The notes: generated by a model from the sequence alone, not told the origin. A stretch of 64,000 nucleotides of DNA from Schmidtea nova (GCA_044892505.1 CM097882.1:513236001-513300000); one strand, 5' to 3'; shown: positions 16,646-63,257, counted from the stretch's first letter. A program made the numbers and translations.

Positions 16646-17059
16646 TTCCTTTGTTTTATTTCCAAAATAAATTTTAAAAAACAAAATTTGTTTTATTAAA
16701 ATTTGACGTAATAAAATTAAGTATATATACTTTGCAAGATCTTACTTGATTATTAAATGATGGATTTTACGGTTATATTTTAAATATCTTTTGTTATAAA
16801 AATTTTATGAATATATCTTTGTTTGATTTTTTTTATTATAAATATATATCTGTGGTTATTTTATACTAAAATTGCAAGCATATTATTGATTTTTTTAAAT
16901 GATATATAATAAAAATAAAAACGCAATTTAAAAAAATATATTATTACAATATATTTCGACAAATTCAATAAAATAAAAATTGATCTTATTTATACGTTTA
17001 TTAGTGATTAAATAATCACGTTCACCATCCAATAAAACTTTTATTAATCATAGTAAAAT

Positions 17060-18500
17060 TAATTAGAACTTCTCAAAATGCATGTAGATATCAAAGCCTC
17101 ACAATTCACACTTTCATAATAATTTTAAAAACCCCTAGACAATATTTTGAAATTAGAAATATCAATGCTTTTCTTGCATGTCTTATTATGCTCAATAATA
17201 TTACTATTTCCGCTCTTTCTGGCATGCTCTTGAACTTGTGTACAGAGATGACGGGCAGTTTCTCCAATGTATGTGACGTTACATCCATTACAAATAAAAC
17301 AATATACTAGATCAGAACACAGACCATATGGCGTCACAGATTTATTACTGAACATGTCCAAACTTTGCAAGACTTAGAAATTATTTTAACATTAGTATTT
17401 CCAATATTTTTTATATTTTCTAAAATTTACAAATCCCTCAGAAAATGGTAAAACTATAACAGAACCAATGCCATCCTTCAAATTATTTTTATTTATTTCA
17501 TTATTATTACTATCAACATGGTGATTCATACACATTACAACATCAAGCTTCAATCAAAGGAACACTATCAAGGGAATTAAACAGATCAACACCAGGTGAA
17601 ATTTTGTCATAATCACATTCAACTTATTAATATACTTATCAACAGTTTTACCCCCATTCCTTGCAAGGAACATTGTAGTAACTTTAGTAATTTATCAATA
17701 CTATTTATAGATTTACAATAAGTTGACAGTAATGTCCAAGAATGATAAACCAATCCCTTATCATATTTCTTTTATATTTAAAATCACAAAAGCTTTCCGG
17801 TGATGTATACAAACCAGTATCTGTTGTTTTCCTATAAATTTCAGTTTCAAAATTTTTATCTTTCTTTTCAATTAACAAAACAAGAAATTATATTTTAGAA
17901 CTAATTTCCTCTTCAAAAGAAAAATTTAATATTTTTATGTAAATTATTCATATAATACAAAAAGACTCAACGTGTTCTTTATTCTTAAATACAAGAAAGA
18001 TATCATCAACATAACGTTTGTATACTAAAAGTTTATTCACACTACAATTTGTACAAATTATTTTTTATACTTGACATGGAAATAGAAGCCAGTGTAGGAA
18101 CTAAAGGTGAGTCCATGACAACACCGTCAATCTGTTTATACCATTGATTATCAAAGGTAAAATCGACATTAGAAGTGGCAAATATAAAAAGTTTACGAAA
18201 AGCAACAGCATCAATAATATTAGGTAGTAAACTGTTGACACTCTATAAATTGAAACAAATATCAATCGTTTCTATTAAAAAAGGCTAGCCACGTCAAACG
18301 AAACCATAAAATTATCATTCCCCCGCTTATTTAAATTTACTATAAAATAGACAAACTCAAAGCTATCTTAACATTCATATTCAGTCTTAATCAAGGGCTT
18401 CAACAAACTATCTAAAGACTTAGCAAATCTGTATTGTGAAGTTTGAATTATTGACAATATAGCTCTCATAGGTAAATTATCTTTATGAACTTTTGAAGAC
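17060..18500 (-). mobile_element. Penelope-like retroelement: decayed RT plus GIY-YIG endonuclease
   Basis: FDVASLF..ETIDI, WYKQIDGVVMDSPLVPTLA and CNGCNVTYIGETARHL..VQEH. Confidence 0.85.
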
Positions 18501-21047
18501 CATATAATTTAGCAGGTTGTCCCCCGAGGCCAAAGTGAACTAGTGTTGAGGTTCCCAGAATCTCAACTTGATATATTTTATAAATAAATAAGATAACACT
18601 GGTTCGTATTAAATTTTTATTAAATAAAAAAATGATAAATCAAAATCAAACAACTTTTTTCAAATCAAAATTTGTTGTGTCTAAATGTGTTATGATTGTA
18701 ATATATGATGCGTGAATGCTGCTTTGAGCTCGATTTATTGTATGCTCTATTTTAATGTTATAGTCGATAACAACTATAAGATTTTTAATCGCAATGATTT
18801 TTGGGGTGATCCTACTGAGGGAAACCTTAGTTTATATAGTTATTTTTTGTGGTCCTTGACTTCAAGTGGTAAGGATCATCAAACGTCAATAATATTGTTT
18901 TTTGTAAACAATTTTTCTATTTTTAAGTTTAATTACTATTTTTAGTGTCATCTTTATTCCCAGCATCCCTGAGGTTAAAAATGTATTAATCTATATCTGG
19001 TTGATACCTATACTTTATTTATACTATTAATTTTCTAATAATTTTTTTATATCTGTCTGTTTCTTTATTATTTATTTTTTTTGTTTTAATTGATGTAGAA
19101 TTTTTTTTTAATAATCTTGCCGTTACATGCTTTTGTAAATGCATCTATAAAAATGGAATGAAACATGGTGTAAAAAATTATTTCACACAAGATAATTGAT
19201 ACCATCCAATGTATTAATATAATGAAGTAAATCTGTAATGTCGAGTCAAAAAATGAAGGATTATTCATATATTTTACAAATTCCTTTAAGGCACTAATTT
19301 GTGTATTCATAATCACTTTATTATCTGGTATCCAATTTTGTAAAAGAATCGTATGAGATTTAAAGAGATAAAACTATTTAGAAAATTAAACAAATTGATA
19401 AAACCTATAAAATCTATTATTAAATGAGAAAATTTCAAATATTAATATATTAAATATTAAAACTTATTAATATTATTAATCTATATTAACATTAATTATA
19501 TTATTATTATTACAATTATTGTTATCATTATTAATATTATTATTATTATAATTATTTACTAATTGCTCTCAATGAGCATTTAATTTTTTTCTTACTCGTT
19601 GAGAGCGTTCCCTGCACCTGAAAAGCACCAATATACTGCTCTTAATAAGCTTATATGAATTCTTATGACGCTTTGCGTCAAACAAATTTAAAAATAAATT
19701 TTTTATGTATAATAATTGATTAGCCCCTAGAAGGCGATAAAAATATATATGTATATATCTGTATGGGGGTCCTGGCCCGGGATAATATTTGATTTTTTTA
19801 ATTACATCGTTGCCATGTTTAAAATATGTTTATAGACAGAAATAATGATCAATACATTAAAATCGATAAATTATAACACAAACAAAATTATAATAAAGTC
19901 CATCAATTATACACAAATTGTCATTACATTCAGTTTAAATAAAAATAACAAATAAGAACATTTAAATATTATTGTCATCACATAATTAAATAAAACATTT
20001 AAATATAATTGTCATCACATTATTTTTACCAAATAAAACATTTATTTGTCAACATTGTTATTCAGTTTCATATTTGGTTTGATATTGGATTTCATTAGTT
20101 TTTGTTGTCATCTTGGTTTATGTACACATTCACTCTGTATTTATTTATCCCTATGCTATAATATTTTAGTTTTATTATTTTTACTATCCTTCCATCTTCT
20201 AACACTAGCAATTTCCTTATCTATATGGTTATTTAAAATTAAGTTATGAAGTAGAGATATTCATATGGTTTCATCTTTTAAAGGTGTTAATTTCTCATTA
20301 TTTCGAAACAAATTATTATGAAAGTGTGAATTGTGAGGCTTTTATGATACAATCATTTTATCCTAAAATAAACACAAAATGCAATATCTACAATGTCCCT
20401 TAAAAGACAAAAAATTTTAAAAATCACAAAATCATTGTCCTCACCCCTTAGAAAGTTGCTCCCATATAAGAAACTAAGTTTGGGAAAATATTTAATTGAT
20501 CACTGTTGATTCAGGGTATGCGCCAGTTGTTTTAAGTTTTTATAAATTTTGTGCAAATTTAAATACTCTCAAAGCTATCTATTTTCCTCAGCATTCAAAA
20601 TACCTTACAGAACAGAAATTAATAAAAATTTTAGAAAAATTAAGTGTGAAATGGTTACTGTCAACGATGGTACAGAAGGTGAAGACACGTGTTTTTTTAA
20701 AAACGCAAATAATACAGCATTTAAACAAGTCAACTTCATACATTTCAATACCAAATTAATTTCACTAATAAAATAAAGTTCTTATGATTAAATTAAAAAA
20801 TAGAACGAATTTGTCTTATGTCTTTCAAAAGTTATTGACAAAAGACAGAAAATAGAACAATGCAGTAATTTAATTTGGAATGAACCTTATTATTATTTTG
20901 TTTTAATTTTTTATAAATTTTGTGCAAATTTAAATACTCTGAGAGTTATCTATTTTCTAATACGGAGTAGGTATAAGTGCTTACAGTTCATTTTTAATTA
21001 TCAAACCATGTTAATTGCATTATTTATATTTCCTTATTGCTTTAGTA

Positions 21048-22971
21048 TGAATTGTATTACGAGAAGTAATGCAAATGTGTATCTACTTGGATCAATAAAG
21101 GAAACTCTTGCTGGAGCTAAATTGCCTTCCATTGGTGATGTAATGGGTTCTTAATCTGCAAAAACTGCAGACCTGTGCTGAAAGTAAACATGATGCTGCG
21201 TTACAAACAATAATTGAAGTGGAGGAGTTTTGGAATAGAGCACGGATTCCAGTAAGAGCACGTCACCGTGCCGTTAAACAGCTTGAAAAGAAAATGACAA
21301 GGTGGGAAAATCTCAAGAAATGCAAAGGACGCCAATCTACAACACAAACTGCAAATGAAGACGAGCTAAAGCAGACATTCGCTGACCCCTTTGATATTGC
21401 TCATGAAGACGCCTTGGTATTAATTAAAATTGAAGAAGATCGACAGTTTCTGTTAGCTCAAAGAGAAAAAGGACGAATTGGTTCAATGACTAGTGTGGAT
21501 ACGTCTCCAGCGCGGAAAGAAAAGAAAGCTTCTGCAAAACAAGAGAAACGATTAAAATTTGAAAGAAAACAGAAAGAAGAGTGTAATTCATCACAACTCA
21601 AGGCAGCTATTTCTTTAAGCGAGACTAAATCCAATGATGAAGACACTTCAGATTCCATATTTGGAAATGGCAATGGAAGTCAAACCCCTCGGAAGTGTAA
21701 AAGAGGCAGACGAACTGTGTTGACGCCTGAAGTTTTGTCATCTCTTGATCGCACAAAAACCAGCATCCGTTCGGCTGTTCACAATCTGTCAGTAGCTGTC
21801 CAAGCATCTGCATGAGATGTAGCTCGTCTCATGCATCGTTCTGTCACGACAGCTCACGTGAAAGAAAAGTTTGATCCTAAAAAACCACTGGTTTTTCATT
21901 TCGATGGCAAAATACTGAAAGATGTGACAGGAGAGCAGAATGTGGGCCGACTTGTCATAATCGTTTCAGGCTCAGGAACTGAGCAGCTCCTTGCTATTCC
22001 CAGACTGTCAAATGGTAAAGGTAAAGAAATTGCCAATGCTCTAGTAGAATCAGTGACTTCATGGGGTCTACAGGAACGCATCAAAGGTCAATATGGCGCT
22101 GCAAGGAGACATAGCTGAGATGATTCAATTCGGCACCAATCAACTACAAAACGTGCTGCCACGTCATGACTAGATGGAACTCCTTGAATTAGTGATCATC
22201 TTCCTGGGCGGCGTTCCACCACGTGGAGTTCATTTTCTCAAACCTGGAGCTTTGCATCGCGCACGGTTTATGGCGAAGCTGTTGTATTCCTACAAAATAT
22301 TCCTGTTCCGAGACACAAATTTCAAGCTTACGGAATGCGAAAGGAAAAGATTGGCCGAAGTGTGCTTATTTGGGGTGCAAGCGTATGTCAAATCGTGGTT
22401 GTTGTGTTAAGTTCCTTCAATGGCTCCCTCTAACGACTTACAACTGCTGAAGAAGCTGGCTATTCTCAATTCCGTAGCATCAAAATGTGCTCTCAATAAA
22501 TTACTCGGTCATCTCTGGTACTTGAGTGAAGATTTAGTGGCTCTTGCGTTATTTGATCGAGAATTGTGTGTCGAGGAAAAGAAGAGCATGGTGAATGAAC
22601 TGCAAAAGAAAGCTATACCTAATCCCAAGAAACGAATCACGATTAAGAAAGAATACGTCCCTGACCTACAGTTGCACAATTTTGTCACTAGCAATTCTTT
22701 GAAGATATTTAAATTGCTATCATTATCTGAGACCTTCTTGGAAGCTGATCGAATCACTTGGATCATAAGAGAAGATTATTTATATGGCAAAGAAATTGTG
22801 CGACAATTGAGAGTCACAAATGACACAGCAGAGAGAGGAATTGCTATGATTCAAGAATTCAGCGGCTTGCTGACAAAGTACGAGGAACAGACTCAGTTTG
22901 CATTACGTGAGCATCGCAAGAAGTTTCCCAAGTGCAGCAAGAACACTATTTTGCAAAATATGCCCAAATGA
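21048..22971 (+). pseudogene. hATm-family transposase, internally deleted near 22088 and interrupted by stops; right TIR-like gggacactcta ends at 23239
   Basis: FWNRARIP, FDIAHEDAL, LVFHFDGKIL, EQLLAIP, PGALHRARFM, GHLWYLSEDLVALALFD and VTNDTAERGI; the expected FDTT..NTG segment is missing. Confidence 0.8.
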
Positions 22972-24136
22972 TTATAACACGATGTTTTTCTTATGTTCGT
23001 TGCTATTCAGTCGAAAATATAAAGCAATATAAAAAATGTAAAACGAACAGTTCAGTTTTTTGTTAGATTATTGGCTGCTCAGACGGCATTTAACATATTG
23101 AAATTTTCAATTCGTTTGTGCATTCCCTTAAAATCGTTTTGTGGCAAATTTTTTGCATAAAGTTTTTTTTTCATAGAGGGACTACACTGAAAGGGCGAGA
23201 GGGTAGTTATTCGAAACTCGAAAAATAAGGGACACTCTAATCTAAATGCATTTTCAGAGTTTTTAATTAATTTTACTAGGATTAATAAAAGTTTTATTGG
23301 ATTGTGCACATAAGATTATGTTATCACTAATAAACGTATAAATAAGATCAATTTTTATTTTATTGAATTTGACAGCGGAGCTGTCGAAATATATCGTAAT
23401 AATATATTTTAAAAAATGGTGTTCTTTTATCAATTTGAATAAATTGTCATTTTTATTTAATAGTTTATTTAAATGATATATAAGTTTAAAAATTTTCAAG
23501 GCTCATTCGAGTATTGGCTACGTCATTATTGCAGTTACTCGAATTGAAATAATAAATTTCATTTTCTAAATATGAATTATTCAGCAAATTGTTTTTGAAT
23601 TAATATATATCATATGATATAAATAAAAAATATATATTAACATTGTTTTCAAAATAAATTAATTTTAGGCTCTATAAACGCCAAATACTGTCAATCATCA
23701 TGGCACAGCAATAATTACCATGAAAAAGTATTATTTAATTAAAAATTATAATAAAAATTATTTTATGCGTCCAGATTGTAAAATCCGGAAAAAATTTCCT
23801 ATTTTGAATTTAACAGTATCATAGAAATCATTTGTCAGTTTTCAGTAATTAGCAAGAAATTGTTATTTAATGAAAATCGGTTCATTTTTAAAACCTATGT
23901 TCCAATTCTTAAAAGAACAGCACCGATAAATAATCGGATAATGCCACAGCATTATCACCATGACTTTTGATTCGCTAAACGGTAAAATAAAATTCGATTC
24001 ATTTTAGTTTTTTAGCTTTATATAATTAATTTTTTTCCGGTTAATTTTTTTGGAGTACTTTTGAGTTATTATTGAATCAATTACACAATTATTATTAATA
24101 TCACAATAAATACAAACTTATTGCATAAATTTAGAT

Positions 24137-37913: not shown

Positions 37914-38645
37914 TGTTTGTACTATTAAGATCAAAACTGGATGATTGATAATCTTAACACAGCTGACTCCAATTATCAATAAAACTGTCTTTTATAAATA
38001 ATAATATGAAATATTATAATTTATATTTAGTCGGTTGCTAGTTCTTATATAAATAACTGAAACAAAGACAATTACTTTTTCTAATGTTTAATGAATAATC
38101 AAATTTACAAAATTGTTGGGCCCAGCGAATCGCAAATAACCTAAAAGAAAGAATAAATTAAATAGAAAAATAGGAATATAGGAATAGGCGTATGACTTCA
38201 CCGAGCGATGTCTAATGACGAGTGGTGTCAAGCTAGCATGGTTGACTGATTAAATGCGATGTTTATGTGAATGACCAAGGTATGGACGAAATAGAATGCC
38301 TCAACGCCAGGGTATATATTCTGTAAACCATTTTAAATCGATCATTTTTCACAGTTTGAATGTCAATCAGAAAAGCAAAAATGGACAATCATGGTAATAA
38401 ACGCAAGATAGCAAGGGAAACTAAGAAGCATCAAGAGGCCGAAAGGATCGATCGACGCCTCACGACAAAACTTCCCTCCGATGTCCGGGCGAAAGTACTG
38501 CGTCATCTACGCCATTGGAGGCGTGAATTTAACCAACCACTTATATTTTCCAAATGTCAGAAACTCATGTTTAAAGTTCGCTGGGAGGGAGATAAGTCAA
38601 CAGCCAGAGTCGAAACGCAGGAACCGGGATTGGTGCTGTTCAACA
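37914..38645 (+). mobile_element. Truncated LTR-like segment (LTR-C) carrying ORF-X
   Basis: Starts TGTTTG, A-rich U3, TATA at about 38312, CAG acceptor at 38354 and ATG at 38360; same layout as LTR-D. Confidence 0.5.
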
Positions 38646-38650
38646 TTTGA
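38360..38650 (+). CDS. ORF-X, LTR-borne protein of unknown function, 3'-truncated
   Basis: RHLRHWRR-x18-RWEGD..TQEPG matches the ORF at 43204-43848. Confidence 0.6.
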   Translation: MSIRKAKMDNHGNKRKIARETKKHQEAERIDRRLTTKLPSDVRAKVLRHLRHWRREFNQPLIFSKCQKLMFKVRWEGDKSTARVETQEPGLVLFNI

Positions 38651-39182
38651 AACTTTCCTTATTAAATCAATATCATTAAACTCAATTACACAAATTGTTT
38701 CTTTCAAACATTTATTAATACCATTTAAAAAGATATCGATTATCAGATTTTTAACATTGTTATTGTCAACTGAGTTTACTCCAAATGCCTTTTTTGCTAC
38801 TGAAATTAATTCATACCCATAATCAAGAACAGGTTCAACATATTTTTGTTTTCTTTCATAAAAGTTTCTTCTCAATTCTTTTAACTTCTTCGCATACTAA
38901 TTTATCTTCCAACGCATCATTTAATTTTGTCCACTCATTTCCAATTTTCTTTTTGTCAATCATACACCATGCATCACGAGAAACTCCAGTTAAATATAAC
39001 GGAAATCTCTGTATAATTTTTGGCTCTGCCCACCCATAAATTGCAGCATACATATGATATTCATTCATAAAATTGAAAAATGAAAATGGATCTCCTCTGT
39101 ATTGATCTTTCGGTAATCTTTGAGAACTGGCAACATCATAGCATTCTTTGTCAACATAAACTAATAAATCTTCACTATTCAT
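38646..39182 (-). pseudogene. Ty3/gypsy gag (capsid) with a frameshift near 38870, truncated
   Basis: Follows the PBS; YAAIYGW..RFPLYLTGVSRDAW..LEDKL and RKQ..EPVLDYGYEL..DIFLNGI resemble the retrotransposon gag domain. Confidence 0.8.
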
Positions 39183-39388
39183 TATGGATTATCTTTAGTC
39201 TGACCTCATAAATTCATTATAAATACATTTCAATAAATTATTTTCTCAAATCGCACAAAATCTAAATTTCAAAATTATAACTACAATCAATAATTTACCT
39301 TGTCACTATTTCTATGAATCTCTTTATCACAATTTATTTTCACTCCTTGTTCAATAAATTTTTATCCGATAACTCTCCACCAACTTTG

Positions 39389-39406
39389 ATCACGTCGGGC
39401 TCACCA
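39389..39406 (-). promoter_or_regulatory. Primer binding site, tRNA-Trp
   Basis: TGGTGAGCCCGACGTGAT is a 17/18 match to the tRNA-Trp PBS TGGTGACCCCGACGTGAT, 5 nt after the LTR end ...CAACA at 39412. Confidence 0.9.
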
Positions 39407-39571
39407 AAATATGTTGTGTTATTATGTCGTTGGTAAAACTTAAGTTTAACAAATTATTCCTGACTCCAAGCGTGTTTTTAATTGACCCCCAAATAACAAA
39501 TAACAATTGACAGTAGGAAACTTTATTGAATATCATAAATATTTTCACAGTGATACAATTGACTCAACAAT

Positions 39572-40072
39572 CTAACTGATTGTTTCTGATAATTTAAAAT
39601 TTGTGGCAAGTGTTGCCGTTAAGATAATTCGTGCACTCCTCCAGAATTTCGAATCAGAAAGGCTTGATATTCTGCCATCGTTGCTTGTCAAATGATACAT
39701 ATAAACTAAGGATTTAATAGTCCACTTTTCGATATTCTTTTGTATGATTTCGATTTGACTCATATTCAAAACTCTCGGTTGAACCCATTTTACCATCAAT
39801 TTCTCATTGACTTCATCGGCATCGGCTTCAACAGGTTTCGTTGTTGCTGCTGTCTTGACTTGACGAAATGCTTTCTTTTCTTCCTCGGAGAACGATTTGA
39901 TATGATTAAACCATCTTAAAGCATGGAAATAGAAGTCTTTAATTGACGAACATGCTTGAAACACTCCAACATCAGCAGTAAATTGATAATATCCATTAGC
40001 ATGGTTTTCATTGAACATATAATCGTTCAATTTTAATTGACCGATATCGATTTTAAGATTACCAAATTCCAT
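39572..40072 (-). CDS. ORF-Y, intact 166-aa ORF of unknown origin inside LTR-B
   Basis: ATG to TAG uninterrupted, protein-like composition; the stop codon lies in the R-like repeat. Confidence 0.55.
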   Translation of the reverse strand: MEFGNLKIDIGQLKLNDYMFNENHANGYYQFTADVGVFQACSSIKDFYFHALRWFNHIKSFSEEEKKAFRQVKTAATTKPVEADADEVNEKLMVKWVQPRVLNMSQIEIIQKNIEKWTIKSLVYMYHLTSNDGRISSLSDSKFWRSARIILTATLATNFKLSETIS

Positions 40073-40337
40073 ATTTTCAAATTTAAATCAAATTAAGAAA
40101 CTTTAATAATTCTTTATTCCTTCAAAAAATTCACAAAATTCGAAACCAAATAATTCTTGAATAAGTCCGATAAAACAAGAGAATAGATCCCAAAAGGTTC
40201 CAATTAATAAGTCCAAGCACAAAAATCAAATTCGACTCCAATTGAAAAATTAATCCAATACAAATCAAAAAATTAAATCCAAAATTAAAAATCAACTCCA
40301 ATTAAAATTAAAAAATGATCCGACAAAACAAAAGAAT

Positions 40338-40990
40338 TCATTCCAAATATTTTGATAGATTTTGATAGCATAAACGGTGAATAGTTATTAACGAATCGAA
40401 TTCCATAATGCTTGTTAACCCATTTCTTTTAAATCTTCTGATAATTCCTTCCAGAGATTCGTAGAGAGATTTATTAATACGATATGAAATTAATTTGCAG
40501 AGATCAAATGATCTTCCAAGTAACTGCAAATGCCGTTGTTTCATTAGTTACGTAGCGCTCTGGTGGTGGATTACTGATATTACTTTTGGAGGAGTTATTG
40601 ACTTGATTTTTAAACCGCTTATTAAGTAGCATGGATGAAGCAAATTGTTTATAAAGAATAAATATCTGATCACTGAGTCTCACCACTAATTGTGACATCA
40701 TAAAGTTAACTTCTGCTTCTATTTCGTTGTAAAGAAATTGTCGCTTAAACTTTTTAAGAGCACAAACAGCGGAATCATTGTATAAATCAAGAGGATACAA
40801 TAAATATTCGATGTAAGCCGGATCTTGAGTATCTAATATGTGATTGGTTAGAATGCACGGTATTGAAGTTTCAATGGGAAATTGGATTCTTTGTCCGTTT
40901 GTCATTTCTAAAAGGAATTCTCGATACCACAATTGTGATAAATCGCAGGAAATTGAAAGTGTATTTTTGAAATTATTATTTGAAATTGGC
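40338..40990 (-). pseudogene. CYFIP: Captured intron-free CYFIP/Sra-1 (cytoplasmic FMR1-interacting protein) internal fragment with one frameshift near 40540
   Basis: CDLSQLWYREFLLEMT.GQRIQFPIE, LYPLDLYNDSA, KRQFLYNEIEAEVN and KQRHLQLLGRSFDL match conserved CYFIP1/2 sequence. Confidence 0.93.
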
Positions 40991-41267
40991 CAAAAAGGTT
41001 ATCAATATTGAATATCACAAATATTTTCACAATGATACAATTGACTCAATCTAACTGATCATTATGCAATGCTTATTGCAACACTGTTGTGAGGAATAGC
41101 ACTCGCGTATAATCTTGATTCGAAATATTACTCACTATTGAAGAAGGTAACAATTGGTAATTAAACTGGTTGTTTTCTGGGTTTGACTTAGATTTACTTG
41201 CTGAGCTTTACTCGGTTTTCCTTTATTTCTGATATATTATTTCGTCGGATTTCCTTTGAATTATTTT

Positions 41268-41537
41268 CTAAACTTCTCTTCTAACTTTCTCCGGCTTCAC
41301 AAAATCTTTCAATTTCTCCGATAAATTGAATACTGTCTTCAACCGTCTATCGTAAATGTTGTCTACTATTCTCTCGTAATTTTTCTCTCGCCAAATGTTC
41401 TGTCTCCCTCTGCTGAGTTTCCTCTTTTTATATCTCGTCACTTTGTGGCACTTAAGTTTATCTCTAATTTTCCATTTTTCTCCCAGCATAATTTCCCGAC
41501 TTTTTTCTACAACGAAGTTATCTCTGACAGCTGTCAA
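41268..41537 (-). CDS. Small U3-encoded ORF (ORF-W), basic, unknown function
   Basis: 89 aa; NIYDRRLKT resembles RTYERKLKA in the decayed frame of LTR-A. Confidence 0.35.
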   Translation of the reverse strand: MTAVRDNFVVEKSREIMLGEKWKIRDKLKCHKVTRYKKRKLSRGRQNIWREKNYERIVDNIYDRRLKTVFNLSEKLKDFVKPEKVRREV

Positions 41538-41959
41538 GATATTCTCTGTTTTTTCTTTTTGCCGCTCCGGCCTGTTTTATTTTTGTTCGCGTTATCTCTG
41601 AATAGCAGTCGAGATAAGTATATTGCTGTTGTTTCTGTTTTTCCCGGTTCTGAAATTCCTTTTCCTTTTGTACTAATTAATTAGTGCTGACCTTTGTTTT
41701 TGTTTACTTGTCTGATTTCTTTTGTCGGATTCCTCTTTCTCATTTCTTTTTGTTTCCGTTTTCTTTTCCGAGTTCCCATTAACCGTCTCTTTTGTCATGA
41801 CGATTTTCCCACCAGGTAATTTTATTTATTTATTCATAAATTTGTTGTTTAGGTATCCTCAACAATTATAATGAATTTAACAAATGACTTCTTGGTAACC
41901 GCCAAGCAATTATTTGAAGAATCGAAGAGATTTTGCTCAATGAAATCGATATAAAAAAT

Positions 41960-42443: not shown

Positions 42444-43008
42444 TTATTTATAATTTAACAACACCGAAGGTCTAATTACATTCAGCAATTCCTGCTCGGA
42501 GAGTCCACTGAGCAGATCCACTTCTATGTCTAGGCGGTCAGCATATGCCCGTCTCTCCCTACGCTTCTTCGCTCCGAGGCGATTCCTTCGTTTTGTCCTT
42601 TGCGACCCTTGTGGTATGGTTGTGGTCACTTCGGTAGCCGTGGTTACGATTATTTCTTTTTCGGTTTGCGTACTCGTAGTTGCTGATGTCGAATTTATCC
42701 ATTTGTTGAAGGTGCTCGCTCTAATCACTGGGCGCAATTGCTCAGTGATGAAATCTTGGGTCGACACCCTTAAGTAATTTGCCAGCTCTAATTTCATGGC
42801 TGCGACCTCTCTCGCTTGTTCGTCGACCGTTTGTTCAGCTCTGTATCGAGCTTGTAAAATGGCTTTAACCCTCTCAGGATTAAACCATGTCGTTTTGATC
42901 CTTTGGTGTTCCTCGCTTAACTGTCGTAAGCGGCTCTCGAGGACTCGGGAACGTGCCTTTTGTTCTCTTGCCTCTTTTTGTAATTTCTGTTGGGAGTCGT
43001 GTCCATAC
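42444..43008 (-). CDS. ORF-Z: coiled-coil/basic protein exon (about 187 codons) preceded by a strong splice acceptor
   Basis: CTAAC branch point and CTTTTACAG at 43009; frame open 43007-42444 (QKLQKEAREQKARSRVLESRLRQLSEEHQR ... KRRNRLGAKKRRERR). Confidence 0.55.
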
Positions 43009-43203
43009 CTGTAAAAGGTGACATTATTTAGGTTAGGGGAATTTGTCCGGTTTCCTAGTCACGATATTATTATCAAACAATCGTACATTTCCTTCATATT
43101 GTTCTCACACATTCGAAAAACCAAAACAAAATTCTTTCGAAAACAAATACATTTATTTTTATATTCACAATGGGTATTTGGATCGTTCACTCCGGATGAG
43201 TGT

Positions 43204-43848
43204 TCATCTTGATTGACTGAATAGTCGGATCTCCTGGTCGGCTTGGTTCTCGTCCCTGCGGATTCCGTTTTCATGGTACAGCTCTGGGGCTGGGCTCCAA
43301 CCTAACTTATCTCGATAGATGAACCCCTCCCAGAGGCGAAGGTCCTTGGGCTCCGGATATTGATCTAAGGAGACACTTCCTGGCGCATTTGAGTAGATTA
43401 AGACTTCCCCAGTGTCGCCACACCGAGGCCTGTCTAGCAGCACGTACCCGAGTTGGTGCAGGGCATGACCAGTTATTATATCGGTGCTCAACAGCCAGCG
43501 GGGCTGATTCGTGTCGTCTACGAATTGGTAGAACCATCGGCCCGGCTGCGTTTTGATGGAGTTCGAGGAGGACATCCAATTTGCGTCTCCTTCCCACCTC
43601 AGTTGTAACCTAAACGCGCACGCTGGGATGCGGGCGCCTATGCTCAGGTGATTCCTTGTCCATCGGCGCAGATGTCGGCGCGCTAATTCTGTAGTTCGGC
43701 GCGGAGCTTCCTCTTCGCCTTCGATTATAGAGTTCACTTTCGTCATGACGACGGAGCGGGTGCGCCGTTTCTTTCGGATGATACAATCTTCTAGTTTCAC
43801 GGGTAGGAATTCCACTGGCCTCCATCTACTGTTTTCTATTTTGACCAT
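43204..43848 (-). CDS. ORF-X homologue (about 214 aa from ATG 43848), unknown function
   Basis: Intact frame; RHLRRWTR-x18-RWEGD..KTQPG is shared with 38360-38650. Confidence 0.7.
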   Translation of the reverse strand: MVKIENSRWRPVEFLPVKLEDCIIRKKRRTRSVVMTKVNSIIEGEEEAPRRTTELARRHLRRWTRNHLSIGARIPACAFRLQLRWEGDANWMSSSNSIKTQPGRWFYQFVDDTNQPRWLLSTDIITGHALHQLGYVLLDRPRCGDTGEVLIYSNAPGSVSLDQYPEPKDLRLWEGFIYRDKLGWSPAPELYHENGIRRDENQADQEIRLFSQSR

Positions 43849-45074
43849 ACTACTCTGAAGAAAGATGACCAGAATTAATTGATGAACCTTACGGTTGATC
43901 ATCTCTATATATACTACCTGGCCCACTAAACTTGTCGATCTATTTTCTGTAGGCCTCTGCAAATCATTCTCATTTCACCCAGCGAGTGACGGTGAAGTAT
44001 TGTAGGCCGCTATCACCGATTTGTTGGCGAGCTAATCTACTCCGCATTTTTACCCCGATGATTTTTTTGTTATACCTAATTCACTTTTTGTTGTTTATGA
44101 CATCAATTTTAGATTTATTATTTATCATTTCACTCACGCTCAATTTATTTTTGTTATTTATGATTATTTTATATTTATTAGTTGTCACGCATACTCGTTT
44201 CCTCAACAAACTTTTATTAATTCACCCCACAATTGACTAACAATGATCATACTACTATGGGAATGTCAAGAATCCCTCACTCTATCTGATTTAGTAATCC
44301 GTGTATTATCGACACCTATTATAGGTGCTTGCCTCTCATATTCCTCGGGGTTTAGGTGCATACGCTGGAAGGTATAATTGATTTATTACCACCCCCTGAC
44401 ACTGGTGCTCTTGCCTAGACTAGTATGACTTATGCTTTGCCTACCCCTGTTCTCGTTCACCCTAGGTTTCTCAGCACTGATGTTACTTGTTACACATACG
44501 TATCCCTCGTCTAGAGATATCGCCATGATATATATCATTCATATGCGACTATCTTTCCTTTGATTGACTCTATGATTGCTCATTCACATGAGTCTATCTT
44601 TGCTTTAATTTACACTCACTAGATTTCACTCGATACCCTATGTGCACTTATTCCCCTTCCGCTTACCAAATATTTAGTAAACCTATGGTCCCGCCGCATC
44701 AGCACCTCACATGAAAATGTGTTGCGCTGAGAGGCCAAGAATCCGTCAGGCTGTTAGGCCTCCGGAAAACCTTATTGATTTTAGCATGATTATGAGGGTT
44801 TAAATCGATTAACAAATAGAACTCAACCATACCTGTATTTAGATTCCAATCGGATTTACAATGTTGTCACGATAAGTTCACACTCAGTTACACTTGGTAA
44901 AAATGACAGTTTTTAAATGACTGCCTTATACTGATTTACCTACAGTATTTATACTAAACCGGTGTTGTTGGTTAGCCAATCAGCATCGAGTATGTGTGTC
45001 TGTTTGTTCATTTTTTATGTTGTCGGCTTTTTGCTGCCTAACTTAACTCACTGATTTATTTGTTTAATCATGCG

Positions 45075-59094: not shown

Positions 59095-60158
59095 CACCAG
59101 GTTTCACTGTATATGGCTACCTATAATAATCAAATAGCTTATATTATAGAAAAATACACACCTACCTGTACCTAATTCATTGCTGTTTTACTGAAAATGG
59201 CGATTTATTATGTCGTAGACAAAGAGTAAGAAAAAATAATAATTACACACAAATACAAAACATAGAAAAAAACAGATGGTAACTTTCATGGGTGTGTTTT
59301 GTTTTATTCAATATGGCTACCATATATAATTTTTATCAGCAGAAAAATTGAAAATTAAAATGAAAAATAAAATTTCAATAATTGGATCTGATGAATCTAC
59401 ATTGAGTTTCCGCGAAAATGATGAAATATCATCATAAGTGTTATAATTTAAGTATTGAAAAATTTATATTTTCCCAGTTTTTCAGACAATTCACTGGAAA
59501 CAATGGCATTTCGTGAAGATGAATTAGGAAAATGGTATCACCTTTTTTATTTATTAAAATATTTTTATGGTCTTAGCCTTTCAGATATTCCTGGTACATC
59601 GTACAACTGCATTTCATTCGATATCCGAAAAAAATGTTCGAAAATCGTAAGATGAAATAATAAATATTTAAAAAGTTATTTGATTTTTATAGGATTTCAG
59701 ATATCGACAAAGCCAGAATCATAAACGCAAAGGAAAATAAACAAGATTACTTTCATTTGGGAAGCTTACTTGGCCACCATATAGCCCTTTCCTCAACCCA
59801 ATCGAAAGTTTATTTAGCAAAATAAAATGCAGTTTAAGGAAGAAAATATCCCGATCAAATTTTTACTTACCTTTGATGTTAATAATTCCATAATATCATA
59901 AACATTTTCCACTAATTATTTAAAAATTAAATAAAAATAGAATTGATGAATAAAGATAACCTTTTAAAGCTTTTATATTGATCTCATATCATTATGAGAT
60001 GAAAAGAAAAGACTTAAAAGTTATCCTAATTACAAAAATTACCTGAAAGCCATTTTAAAATGGCTAATTACAACAAGTTTTAAAAAATGAGTAATAATAA
60101 CTCGTGATGTATCTCACTCACCTGCATTATAGGTCGCCATATCCAGTGAAACACGGTG
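59095..60158 (+). mobile_element. Related Tc1/IS630-like element nested in the outer element; DDE remnants with intron-like segments
   Basis: 33-bp TIRs caccaggtttcactgtatatggctacctataat / inverse ending 60158; TA flanks; IIGSDES and WPPYSPFLNPIESLFSKIK. Confidence 0.8.
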
Positions 60159-60756
60159 TAGAAATTCAAAACACTCACCTGTGTGTTATCGGTGTGCTAA
60201 CATTCATTGACATCCTTTATTATGTGGTAGACAAAAAGGATAGAAAAATTTTGTAAACCACAAAAAGGCATTATATAGTAAAAACTGCATGCAAACTTTT
60301 AATGGGTGCAAATCTAATCAATCACTAACATCCCATAATAAATCTTACGCACACAAAAAAGTTGATATTTTCTTCATTTTAATTATTTTTTTATCGATTT
60401 TTAAAATGAAATTAAAAGCAAAATCATTGAAAAAAAATATATTTCAAGAGGGCATATTGTAAGATGTCTTTTTCATTTAAAAATTAAATAAATTTTTTAT
60501 AGCAAATCTGATAATTCTGAAGGCTCCAAGTTAAGCTTTCGGGAAAATGACCAGCCAAATTTGTAAAAATTATTTTTTTATTATAAAAATAATAAAATTT
60601 TGATAGCAATTCTGATATTTCTGAAGGCTCCACGTTAAGCTTTCGGGAAAATGACCAGCTAAATTTGTAAATATTATAATTTTTAATATATCATTAAATC
60701 AAAATTTTTATAGAATATCATTTAATGAAGGGCAATCAAGTTCTACAAGGCTTGGT

Positions 60757-61053
60757 TTGGAGAGAAAAACTAGAAAAAAAGCTGACAAAGTCAAAATCGT
60801 GAATGCCATGGAAAATGGGGAGGATTATTTTCAATTTGGTAGACTGTTAGGAATTACTAAAAACACAATAAAAGCAATAGTAATTAAGTATAAAAAATTT
60901 GGCTTTATATCAAAAGGGAAAATCGGTGGCAGCAAATCAAAGATTTCCGAAGAAAATGGAAACAAACTGTTAGATTATGTAGAAAAAAAATTATTTTTCA
61001 AATCTAACAGAAATAAAAAATTACTTAAATACACAAAACTGTTCGAGTTTTGA
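60757..61053 (+). CDS. Truncated transposase DNA-binding (paired-like HTH) ORF
   Basis: GRLLGITKNTIKAIVIKYKKFG..KGKIGGSK. Confidence 0.65.
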   Translation: MERKTRKKADKVKIVNAMENGEDYFQFGRLLGITKNTIKAIVIKYKKFGFISKGKIGGSKSKISEENGNKLLDYVEKKLFFKSNRNKKLLKYTKLFEF

Positions 61054-63257
61054 AAAATAGTCCAAAATGCTTCAAAAAAATAGATATTGTAGCAGCTGCA
61101 AATATATTTAATAAAACAAATATAGCAGCTAAAAATATATTTAATAAAACAAATTGTTCTTTCTTAGCTGCCAATATATCATCAGATTTCACAGTTGATT
61201 TAGTCTTCTTTTCCTTCATTAAATAGCTGTCTTTAATGCGCTCTGGTATATCAATGGTAGAAATATCGATCTTTGTGCTTGTAGCAATCACTGGGGTGAT
61301 TGATTGTCTCATTCGCCTCTTGTGCTCACTGAATTCTTTTGTACGATTTGCGTTCTTTTTCATTACTACATTCAATGGGTAACTTTGTGGTTTGCATTGG
61401 GTTTTAATTGGTGCAGCTTCCATTTTTCTTAAATTGCTTCTTGCATGTAGTTTTTTAAATAAGGTGAAAAGTGCCATTTTTGTGTGATTTAAACAAATCG
61501 CATTTTTTTTTAATAATAGATTTTAATATATAGATATAGATATTTAATTAAATAATATAATAACATATAAATAACGGAGGCACTACAGATATCTCTGGAG
61601 ATTAATGTTATTAATGTAATAAAATAATAAATTTTACTTTAGTTACTTAATTTATGTGAATATTAATCCATTAAATTGTTGGCAAAATGCTAAAAAAGTG
61701 ATATTTAAATGAAAAAATTAAGTAAATTTCTTAATTAAAACAAAGAAAATTCATGAGTAATCATGAATACGCACACCAACTAGCATTATAGAGGATGCTA
61801 GTCATCGTTATACGGTGTATAATACCACTTTTACTAGGTTCCAACAAAATTAAATATAAAATAAATTTACTATACCACTCTACTCTCGCTACTATGCCTA
61901 TATTGTGTAATTGTCAAAAGGCACGAGTTTTGAAAAGCCTATGTTTTTGCACAATGCTCGATTATCACTCATGTCCCAAAGGTGAAGCGATAAATTAAGT
62001 CAAACTGCACACAACAACACTCGGCGCACTTGGAGTACCGTACGGAAGTTGTTGCAACAGAAAGTGGGAAGCCAGGTGTGATGCAAGCGTGCGATCAGTA
62101 AGATAACGAGATGCACATGATCCGCCAAAAGAAGATGCGCCAACCGACAATTCTTTAGAGCTTTGGTCGGATAATTAACTTGAGAAAATAAATCTATTTT
62201 TACAAACCCTCGTTACTATGCACTCTTGTTACTTTGCCACTCTTGCTCGATCGTGACAGGTGACATAGTTACGAGATTTGACTGTATTCGATTTATATTA
62301 AAATTATTACACTTTTTTAACGGATTTCGGATTTTTACGGTAACAAATACATTTTGGAGAAAAAAGTGGAATTGGAAGAATGCAACAATAATTCATTAAT
62401 TAGTTAATTTATAAATTTAATTAAGTGTTTAAAAAACCAACAAATCACGTGAGAAACAATTATAGATTAATTTAGTAGTAAATTAAATCCAAAGATAAAT
62501 TGATAAATAATTTACCTATTCCCATTTCGAGTACCACAGGAACAATAAAAGTAATCGGTAGACATACATGGAATATCTGAAAGGCTAAAAACATTGTAAA
62601 TATTTTTTAATTAAAAATAATTCCTCAACTTCGCAAGTTTTTAGTGAAGAATTTTCTGAAATTCTTTGAAAATATAAATTTATTATAATTTAAATTATAT
62701 TACTTACGATGATATTTCATCATTTTCACGAAAACTCAAGGCAGATTCCTCAGATTCATTTTAAAGAAATTTTATCCGTCATTTTCATTTTCAATGTTTT
62801 TAATGATTCAAATTTTGTGTGAGATTATAGAATGAAACAATTGACGCATTTGGAAGTTTACATCTTATTTTTTCTATGTTTTGTGTTTGTGTGAGATTAT
62901 GTTTTATTCTATCACTTTTTCTACGACATAATAAATGATACGATTGAGTAAAACAGCAATGGATAAGGTACAGGTAGGTGTGTATTTTTCTATAGTATAA
63001 GCTTACTGATTATTATAGGTTATACACTTCAGCGAAACACAGTGTACAAACTGCTGCAGAAAACATTGGTTACCAAGGAAACTAAATCAAACGTGATTAT
63101 GGGCTAATACCATTTATATAGATTGTTGGGTTGTGTCTAAACAATCACAAAAAATATATGCAAATTAATAAAAACATAAAATTTTAATAATTAAAGTACA
63201 AAGATTAATTTATATTTGTGAAATTAAAAAATAATGATTTAACGGGGGAAACTGGTA

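Follow-up and report, generated by a model that had tools for sequence, protein, structure and literature searches.

How does the coding sequence of a host gene come to lie within the long terminal repeat (LTR) of a retrotransposon? This question is raised by a 64-kb stretch of the Schmidtea nova genome (hereafter the window; G000:C1:513236001-513300000, where C1, C2 and C3 are sequences of genome G000). Here an LTR of one retrotransposon family (family A) contains, between two copies of a short segment of its own, 1425 bp with a CYFIP reading frame and a second open reading frame (ORF), ORF-Y. A preliminary description of the locus attributed the insert to the capture of two cellular RNAs by this outer LTR. 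Our analysis indicates that the insert is one mobile unit, an LTR of a second family (family B, Bel/Pao) nested in the older A LTR. We favor the reading, with a probability of about 0.66, that it is a nested B solo LTR and that the B LTR has served repeatedly as a trap for host exons, through splicing from a GT donor near LTR nucleotide (nt) 68 followed by template switching.

A Bel/Pao solo LTR nested in an older LTR

The locus contains the following features, all on the minus strand.

41006-41864, minus: 5' part of the family A LTR, an old high-copy family (best relative 87% identical)
41006-41059, minus: first copy (54 bp) of the duplicated A-LTR segment; the 7 nt at its end, 41012-41006, equal B-LTR nt 21-27
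39581-41005, minus: solo LTR of Bel/Pao family B, long CYFIP form; first ~20 nt missing, right end exact
40965-41005, minus: head of the B LTR as far as the fixed capture junction, largely derived from the spliced 5' mRNA of host gene f (from G000:C2:235713407 onward)
40404-40964, minus: complete exon from CYFIP paralog B (G000:C1:50647362-50646800 in the host), beginning at the acceptor; 2-bp deletion in 8/8 long copies
40340-40403, minus: initial 64 bp of the exon that follows in CYFIP-B (C1:50644012-50643949 in the host), ending in a 13-nt microhomology with the parent LTR
40073-40339, minus: T-rich B-LTR spacer, with AATAAA at 40118-40113, likely B's poly(A) signal
39581-40072, minus: ORF-Y, the LTR-encoded N-terminus of the B gag-pol polyprotein, which stops here 7-9 nt into A sequence
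39524-39580, minus: duplicated A-LTR segment, copy 2, 57 bp, continuing into A's AATAAA
39412-39580, minus: 3' part of the family A LTR, from alignment to A relatives
39390-39406, minus: primer-binding site (PBS)-like 17-mer of element A
38630-39188, minus: broken gag-like frame of element A, without a Pfam match

As described before, the outer LTR spans 41864-39412, with a PBS-like motif and then a broken gag-like frame downstream of it, and removal of the insert leaves an ordinary LTR (974 bp; about 970 bp had been estimated) that is collinear with those of A-family relatives. The 17-mer at 39406-39390 is presumably a tRNA-Trp PBS; no tRNA gene was present among the six of 3067 pattern matches looked at. 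Element A may be Ty3/gypsy from the look of its motifs; its gag-like frames in the window gave no Pfam match.

A search for family A gave 3985 first-look candidates, of which 40 were scored and 29 relatives fetched. The closest relative of the outer LTR, the best among the 40 scored, is only 87% identical, none of the 29 fetched relatives carries the insert, and no partner A LTR, including a 3' LTR, is present in the 64-kb window. The CYFIP part of the insert diverges by just 1-3% from its kin copies. The outer LTR had therefore aged long before it received the insert, and it did not replicate together with it.

Units of the insert type were found at 30 fetched loci with the same two ends as in the window, the start lying about 20 nt further 5' and beginning with TG. 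Elsewhere they are bordered by a 5-bp target-site duplication (TSD), or have a PBS behind them or a purine tract (PPT) in front. The exact 20-nt start of the B LTR occurs 156 times in the genome (control, 0), and older copies outnumber these. A natural full-length B copy encodes a single frame of 2098 amino acids (aa) with the Pfam domains Peptidase_A17 (E = 2.3e-49), DUF1759 (E = 2.9e-14), RVT_1 (E = 4.3e-10), rve (E = 5.8e-7, under the curated cut-off) and DUF5641 (E = 6e-24), and this domain set in one frame identifies family B as Bel/Pao. Its LTRs run from TG to CA and are accompanied by PBS and PPT; an exact 5-bp TSD flanks 11 of 13 full elements, and the other two have 6 and 4 bp.

The second frame of the insert, formerly regarded as another captured cellular RNA, is the start of B's own polyprotein. 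ORFs that begin inside an LTR are known from Ty1. ORF-Y does so as well, and in B 5' LTRs it continues through the PBS into gag-pol with open frames of up to 2131 aa; among cargo carriers, open gag-pol frames are 1856-2352 aa long. A cellular origin of ORF-Y was rejected because of this shared frame, the lack of a Pfam or Atlas family, and the lack of an evident host-like locus (judged from a table in which 150 of 342 candidates were scored). ORF-Y may nevertheless be an ancient capture. In each of the 50 LTRs listed, the ATG is preceded at a distance of 35-78 nt by a poly(A) hexamer, which is situated downstream of the site at which host cargo is carried.

The duplicated segment was described correctly: the copies (41059-41006 and 39580-39524) are 1479 bp apart, and they differ by two substitutions and a 3-bp indel. 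At the left end of the insert about 20 nt of B are missing, and the joint, which lies 54 bp past the insertion point in A, was made through a 7-nt word shared with A's poly(A) signal; the right end of B is exact. It is highly improbable that reverse transcription brought two cellular RNAs into the A LTR itself at its R boundary. The break within A's poly(A) signal at a 7-nt microhomology could be a strand-transfer landing, and the three differences between the duplicate copies are matched by 20% of pairs among 26 A copies, a figure that also weighs against a firm call on the duplication. A recent product of reverse transcription would, however, need a near-identical donor, which the A relatives scored do not provide; the insert is a complete unit, a B LTR that occurs elsewhere with TSDs of its own; and ORF-Y belongs to gag-pol. 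The earlier idea that an LTR works here as a mobile gene-capture cassette can be kept, with the inner Bel/Pao LTR and not the outer one as the capturer.

The 54-57 bp duplication is best read as a local repair scar. It would likely stem from a one-sided aberrant integration finished by host repair, or from later microhomology repair against the empty allele; its origin by reverse transcription is unlikely given a B copy so close to its kin inside an A LTR with no such relatives. What remains at the window locus is a nested solo LTR that is dead and whose CYFIP passenger is neutral. Two arguments considered for these junctions were dropped: a shared derived base as proof of local duplication, which the 3-bp deletion leaves ambiguous, and the loss at the left end as evidence for a B start site at nt 21-27, as the event looks local. 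A second, independent B solo LTR sits within an A-family LTR at G000:C1:324.736 Mb (L016), in the opposite orientation and with a normal 5-bp duplication.

The CYFIP cargo and its source

The CYFIP piece in the window is 625 bp long (40964-40340), matches Pfam FragX_IP (E = 2.5e-61) and is about 98% identical to its source. The preliminary description gave about 650 bp of intron-free CYFIP sequence, which is right as to the missing intron but too long, since the 41 bp before the piece are B-LTR head. Alignment to the source locus showed two exon parts, separated in the host by a GT-AG intron of 2787 bp that is absent from the cargo, and the first cargo base directly follows the host acceptor AG. 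The cargo is thus not a single native exon, and the lost intron and exact exon start bear out its passage through spliced RNA and reverse transcription.

With the canonical CYFIP gene on C2 the cargo shares only 59% protein identity, a value that could have pointed to a horizontal or very old origin. This was ruled out by an intron-containing paralog, CYFIP paralog B (C1:50.636-50.688 Mb), with 97% protein likeness to the cargo and tree support of 100/100. Paralog B (G000:C1:50636085-50687992, minus strand) is full-length and fast-evolving, with a long branch and an open frame in the exons mapped, and is 56% identical to the canonical exon.

A search with the CYFIP piece returned 40 matches among 118 candidates, namely eight long copies (including the window), one host gene and 31 copies with 70-77 bp, and the protein search gave 62 short matches among 73. 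With eight long and at least 62 short matches, none with a tail and always within a B LTR, a single-copy retrocopy inserted later with its own TSD or poly(A) does not describe the cargo. The 2-bp deletion common to all eight long copies indicates one CYFIP capture. Among 34 distinct changes, 24 are nonsynonymous, nine synonymous and one a stop (neutral synonymous share, 0.205); this near-neutral mix and the shared frameshift leave protein-level selection unsupported, and the cargo looks like a neutral passenger at the protein level. The short form was also considered as a splice product and rejected, as it has at least three breakpoints, without GT-AG and at short homologies, which indicate several deletions. 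The far junction of CYFIP with the LTR is spanned by sequence contigs of four sequencing runs; contig depth follows repeat copy number, so the runs look like DNA.

Five host genes joined at one LTR base

The B LTR carries other host genes at the very base at which CYFIP starts: a calpain, a SNARE-domain syntaxin-like gene and two unnamed genes, c and d. An LTR-head pattern search gave 55 matches, and in total 162 LTR heads were typed, a sample biased by the search design. Ninety of the 162 carry one of these five cargoes (a-e), and all 90 start at the same LTR position. Each cargo has an intron-bearing or genomic source, and captured junction pieces are still 97-100% like their sources. The calpain is 62% identical to a Dugesia calpain in a protein search, and the named protein matches suggest a triclad flatworm as host; gene d has no homolog among longer proteins, and genes c, d and f have no Pfam match. 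Exons for RhoGEF and PH domains, presumably Trio/kalirin-like and possibly of a separate gene, lie about 27 kb upstream of the gene-c exon (G000:C1:89.607-89.625 Mb; L355, L356).

The left junction has the features of splicing. In all five sources an AG directly precedes the first cargo base (AG background, 2.7-4.4%), three cargoes begin at verified exon starts, one (c) at an acceptor assigned from context and one (d) at a cryptic AG, and for CYFIP, calpain and syntaxin the reading frame is carried over from the preceding exon. Long introns, of 3.2, ~43, ~12.9 and ~5.8 kb, lie ahead of the acceptors. Homology to the parent LTR at the left junction is 0, 2, 1, 0 and 1 nt for cargoes a-e, so that these cargoes do not show the microsimilarity at both fusion points by which Tan-type retrocopies are recognized. 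The far junctions are of another kind, with homologies of 13 nt for CYFIP and 9 nt for gene d against control maxima of 8 and 7, the test window having been wider than the control window. The calpain cargo lacks a coding 46-nt GT-AG stretch, which shows cryptic splicing of element RNA.

We also considered whether all junctions could be plain microhomology switches, the left one being a hotspot or pause site of reverse transcriptase (RT) and the AG due to chance. Other B cargoes, namely Tudor, SRAP, h, VPS35 and antisense k (see below), are indeed joined at 6-13 nt of microhomology, and microsimilarity was found at 25 of 29 junctions in the available part of an earlier study of LTR-mediated retrocopies (PMC5131818). 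The near-absence of left homology, the AG before five of five cargoes and the three verified exon starts argue against this explanation, which we regard as very improbable.

Origin of the presumptive donor

Form f of the B LTR runs uninterrupted across the capture junction. Its head and the first 450 nt that follow come from the spliced 5' mRNA of a host gene located at C2:235.713 Mb, from which several introns are gone, one of them within the head. All eight f-type LTRs typed have GT at the junction base, preceded in two of the eight by AAAA; the same AAAA closes 81 of the 90 derived heads. A further form, j, gave 40 matches at 75-100% identity with no host source among 30 loci read, and looks like the older native LTR. 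Ordered by shared sequence and not by a rooted tree, the forms would follow the sequence j, f and then a-e: the native LTR would have acquired 5' mRNA of gene f through a template switch, a cryptic donor within that mRNA would have permitted the five spliced captures, and secondary captures and deletions would have come afterwards.

Further cargoes and paired LTRs

Altogether 12 host genes were found in the B LTR, five at the fixed junction and about seven others. A Tudor-domain exon was captured on top of the calpain cargo and the 3' end of gene g on top of the syntaxin cargo. The 5' end of an SRAP/HMCES-like gene (Pfam score just under the cut-off; host G000:C1:459121821) has lost two introns and is joined at LTR nt 17-23 (L252-L255, L263, L265, L268). 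A spliced piece of gene k (host G000:C2:116556393-116556114) lies in antisense within the syntaxin cargo (L256, LTR nt 96-330) with 11-nt microhomology, and the 3' end of gene h was also captured. Forms h and f likewise diverge at LTR nt 22-33; the divergence points near nt 17-33 hint at a B start site or a required end sequence.

VPS35 contributes ~372 codons (E = 1.8e-125) from seven host exon pieces with six introns removed. It replaces ORF-Y in frame with gag-pol, giving an open frame of 2352 aa, and differs from the host exons at no synonymous and seven nonsynonymous positions. The subfamily is found at G000:C3:90318228-90327950 (L256/L377), C2:425.75 Mb and C1:199995340, with LTRs of 1848 bp.

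LTR pairs were called in 13 of 14 elements. The cargo is the same in all 13 pairs, eight of which show no substitution while the rest are at most 1.4% apart; with the VPS35 pair, which shares its cargo and differs at one of 1848 positions, this makes 14 of 14. Such near-identical, cargo-sharing pairs indicate that family B is young and that cargo passes through reverse transcription. All of the ~18 internal introns of mapped cargoes are gone, including ones of 2.8-12 kb.

Proposed route of capture and its alternatives

The model of retroviral oncogene transduction involves read-through or splicing, co-packaging and one non-homologous switch. For family B, an intronic copy would be transcribed into a read-through RNA, in which the GT near LTR nt 68, the presumptive donor, would be spliced to the next host exon. 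This splice would probably remove B's own poly(A) signal and force read-through as a spliced chimera. The chimeric RNA would presumably be co-packaged with normal element RNA, and a single RT switch at microhomology back into the LTR would complete the capture, both new LTRs then carrying the host piece. The founder copies would once have resided in long upstream introns and been lost later.

Several observations weigh against this route. The 19-80 kb searched upstream of the five acceptors, in one assembly, contained no remnant of B in any case, and the two donor-bearing LTRs examined are not evidently within host introns. The far-junction homologies of gene c (7 nt) and syntaxin (6 nt) do not exceed the control. 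For the unnamed gene c, nothing but context identifies the acceptor, and the far junction, too, coincides with an exon end and shows 2-nt homology, an arrangement that a single template switch does not predict. For gene d, the junction AG probably lies 34 nt inside the true exon, and the 6-nt repeat there is explicable by a slip. The search also yielded no full element whose two LTRs both carry the long CYFIP form: for the sole long-form 5' LTR, the 19.5 kb read contained no 3' LTR, and the remaining six long-form copies have no B internal region in the 10 kb upstream. A truncated B LTR (L365, G000:C1:286470296-286470115) contains a gene-f piece that retains a 69-nt host intron with an altered acceptor. 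Finally, the slot may be located in either U3 or R.

The missing founders also favor an alternative in which the LTR donor was trans-spliced to acceptors of unlinked host pre-mRNAs, with the ~45-nt head acting like a spliced leader, before the template switch. The gene-c cargo, a single exon with splice sites at both ends, agrees with this, flatworms perform spliced-leader trans-splicing, and use of a trans-splice acceptor by an LTR, in that case in cis, is on record (PMC4558846). On the other side, gene-truncating intronic insertions would be expected to be purged or polymorphic, so that their absence from one assembly says little; long upstream introns suit insertion targets; and among the features of a spliced-leader RNA only the donor-like GT is seen. 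We therefore consider trans-splicing unlikely.

The intron retained in the f-derived copy, with its changed acceptor, would rather fit a course in which RT switched twice onto partly spliced pre-mRNA and the element RNA was cis-spliced later. Cryptic splicing inside cargo occurs, and double-switch captures are common in family B. This course would leave unspliced intermediates, and none was found at the fixed junction in the 90 heads; the mapped internal introns, up to 12 kb long, have all been removed. We judge it to be rather improbable, and return to splicing from an LTR donor followed by one switch as the preferred explanation.

A bolder extension, which we hold to be doubtful, is that B is a self-renewing exon trap whose host-derived leader exon is trans-spliced to unlinked pre-mRNAs and copied back, so that it would sample the stem-cell transcriptome. 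Its LTR transcripts might then give rise to sense and antisense small RNAs that target a dozen host genes, including Tudor and CYFIP, and the front of Gag might receive host domains, of which VPS35 is an example, by swapping.

Comparison with known systems

The comparisons below refer to the parts of the cited papers that were available. LTR-mediated retrocopies of animals are formed by RT template switching, through which spliced host mRNA becomes part of LTR elements (Tan et al., 2016; PMC5131818). Similar to family B, they show short homologies, partial genes, multi-gene chimeras and further rounds of copying. They differ in that internal ORFs are replaced, the elements are non-autonomous and microsimilarity is present at most junctions, whereas in family B the cargo lies in the LTR and is doubled in both, long gag-pol frames are kept and a splice-type joint was reused five times.

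Retroviral read-through and splicing into host genes are documented for c-erbB and c-myb (PMC3186009; see also PMC3185771). Shared elements are an intronic copy, splicing of an element donor to a host acceptor and a second junction made by RT recombination. Unlike these cases, the B donor resides in the LTR and comes from an earlier captured host mRNA, the product is found inside the LTR and not between LTRs, and the setting is a Bel/Pao element in an invertebrate host.

Flatworm precedents exist for parts of the process. Solo LTRs of tapeworm ta-TRIM elements are cis-spliced to downstream host exons, including at a trans-splice acceptor (Koziol et al., 2015; PMC4558846); in the portion of that report available, these fusions are transcripts only and, unlike in B, are not re-copied into the LTR. 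The Flow superfamily of planarian BEL/Pao elements (PMC3118150) fits B in domain set, element size (6.8-9.7 kb) and host group, and LTR cargo goes unmentioned in the available text on Flow.

In barley BARE-2 (PMC13317346), foreign sequence entered the LTR by abnormal template switching and is inherited by a subfamily, as in B; there the donor was another retrotransposon, Wis-2, in one event and without splicing. One-ended retroviral integrations (PMC5041404) resemble the left junction in the window in having one exact end, one trimmed end and a larger target duplication. They were seen under drugs or mutations in human immunodeficiency virus (HIV) and avian sarcoma-leukosis virus (ASLV), whereas the window holds one natural case, which later repair could also explain. 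In the literature covered, we saw no family described in which host exons had been captured repeatedly at a fixed LTR donor.

Family B shows serial, LTR-resident capture of host exons, with a reused splice-type junction, in elements whose coding frame is kept. LTR elements are generally held to capture genes rarely, in their internal regions and at the price of being crippled, yet this young family shows about a dozen cases within its LTR. Cargo in this position is doubled in each round, stays in every solo LTR and costs no coding capacity. The five uses of one splice-type junction represent natural replicates of the read-through, splicing and template-switch route known from retroviral oncogenes. 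They make several questions testable, including a cryptic donor that turns an LTR into an exon trap, cis versus trans capture in a trans-splicing animal, and cross-talk of PIWI-interacting RNAs (piRNAs) with host genes. For genome annotation they carry a warning, as host exons here resemble repeats and LTRs resemble paralogs.

Other features of family B and of the window

Two unrelated Gag N-terminal extensions, the ORF-Y type and a second type, are shuffled among the cargo types of B LTRs (e.g., L262, L252, L266 and L269), a pattern that speaks for frequent recombination; either extension may be an old capture. In one polyprotein (L230, aa 271-338; G000:C2:412.96-412.97 Mb) a ubiquitin-like domain (Pfam E = 6.6e-16) ends in GG just before gag and is possibly a cleavage signal. 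Tandem B arrays with common LTRs are present at G000:C3:49.66-49.68 Mb and C1:436.69-436.71 Mb, and many B insertions sit in ATT/TA microsatellites.

Upstream of the A LTR, the window contains two long GC-richer frames of 204 and 256 aa (42444-43974, minus strand) that have no significant Pfam match. Long inverted-repeat pairs at 59119-63020 and 16960-23371, with arms of 77-113 bp and 58-70 bp, respectively, resemble the ends of DNA transposons.

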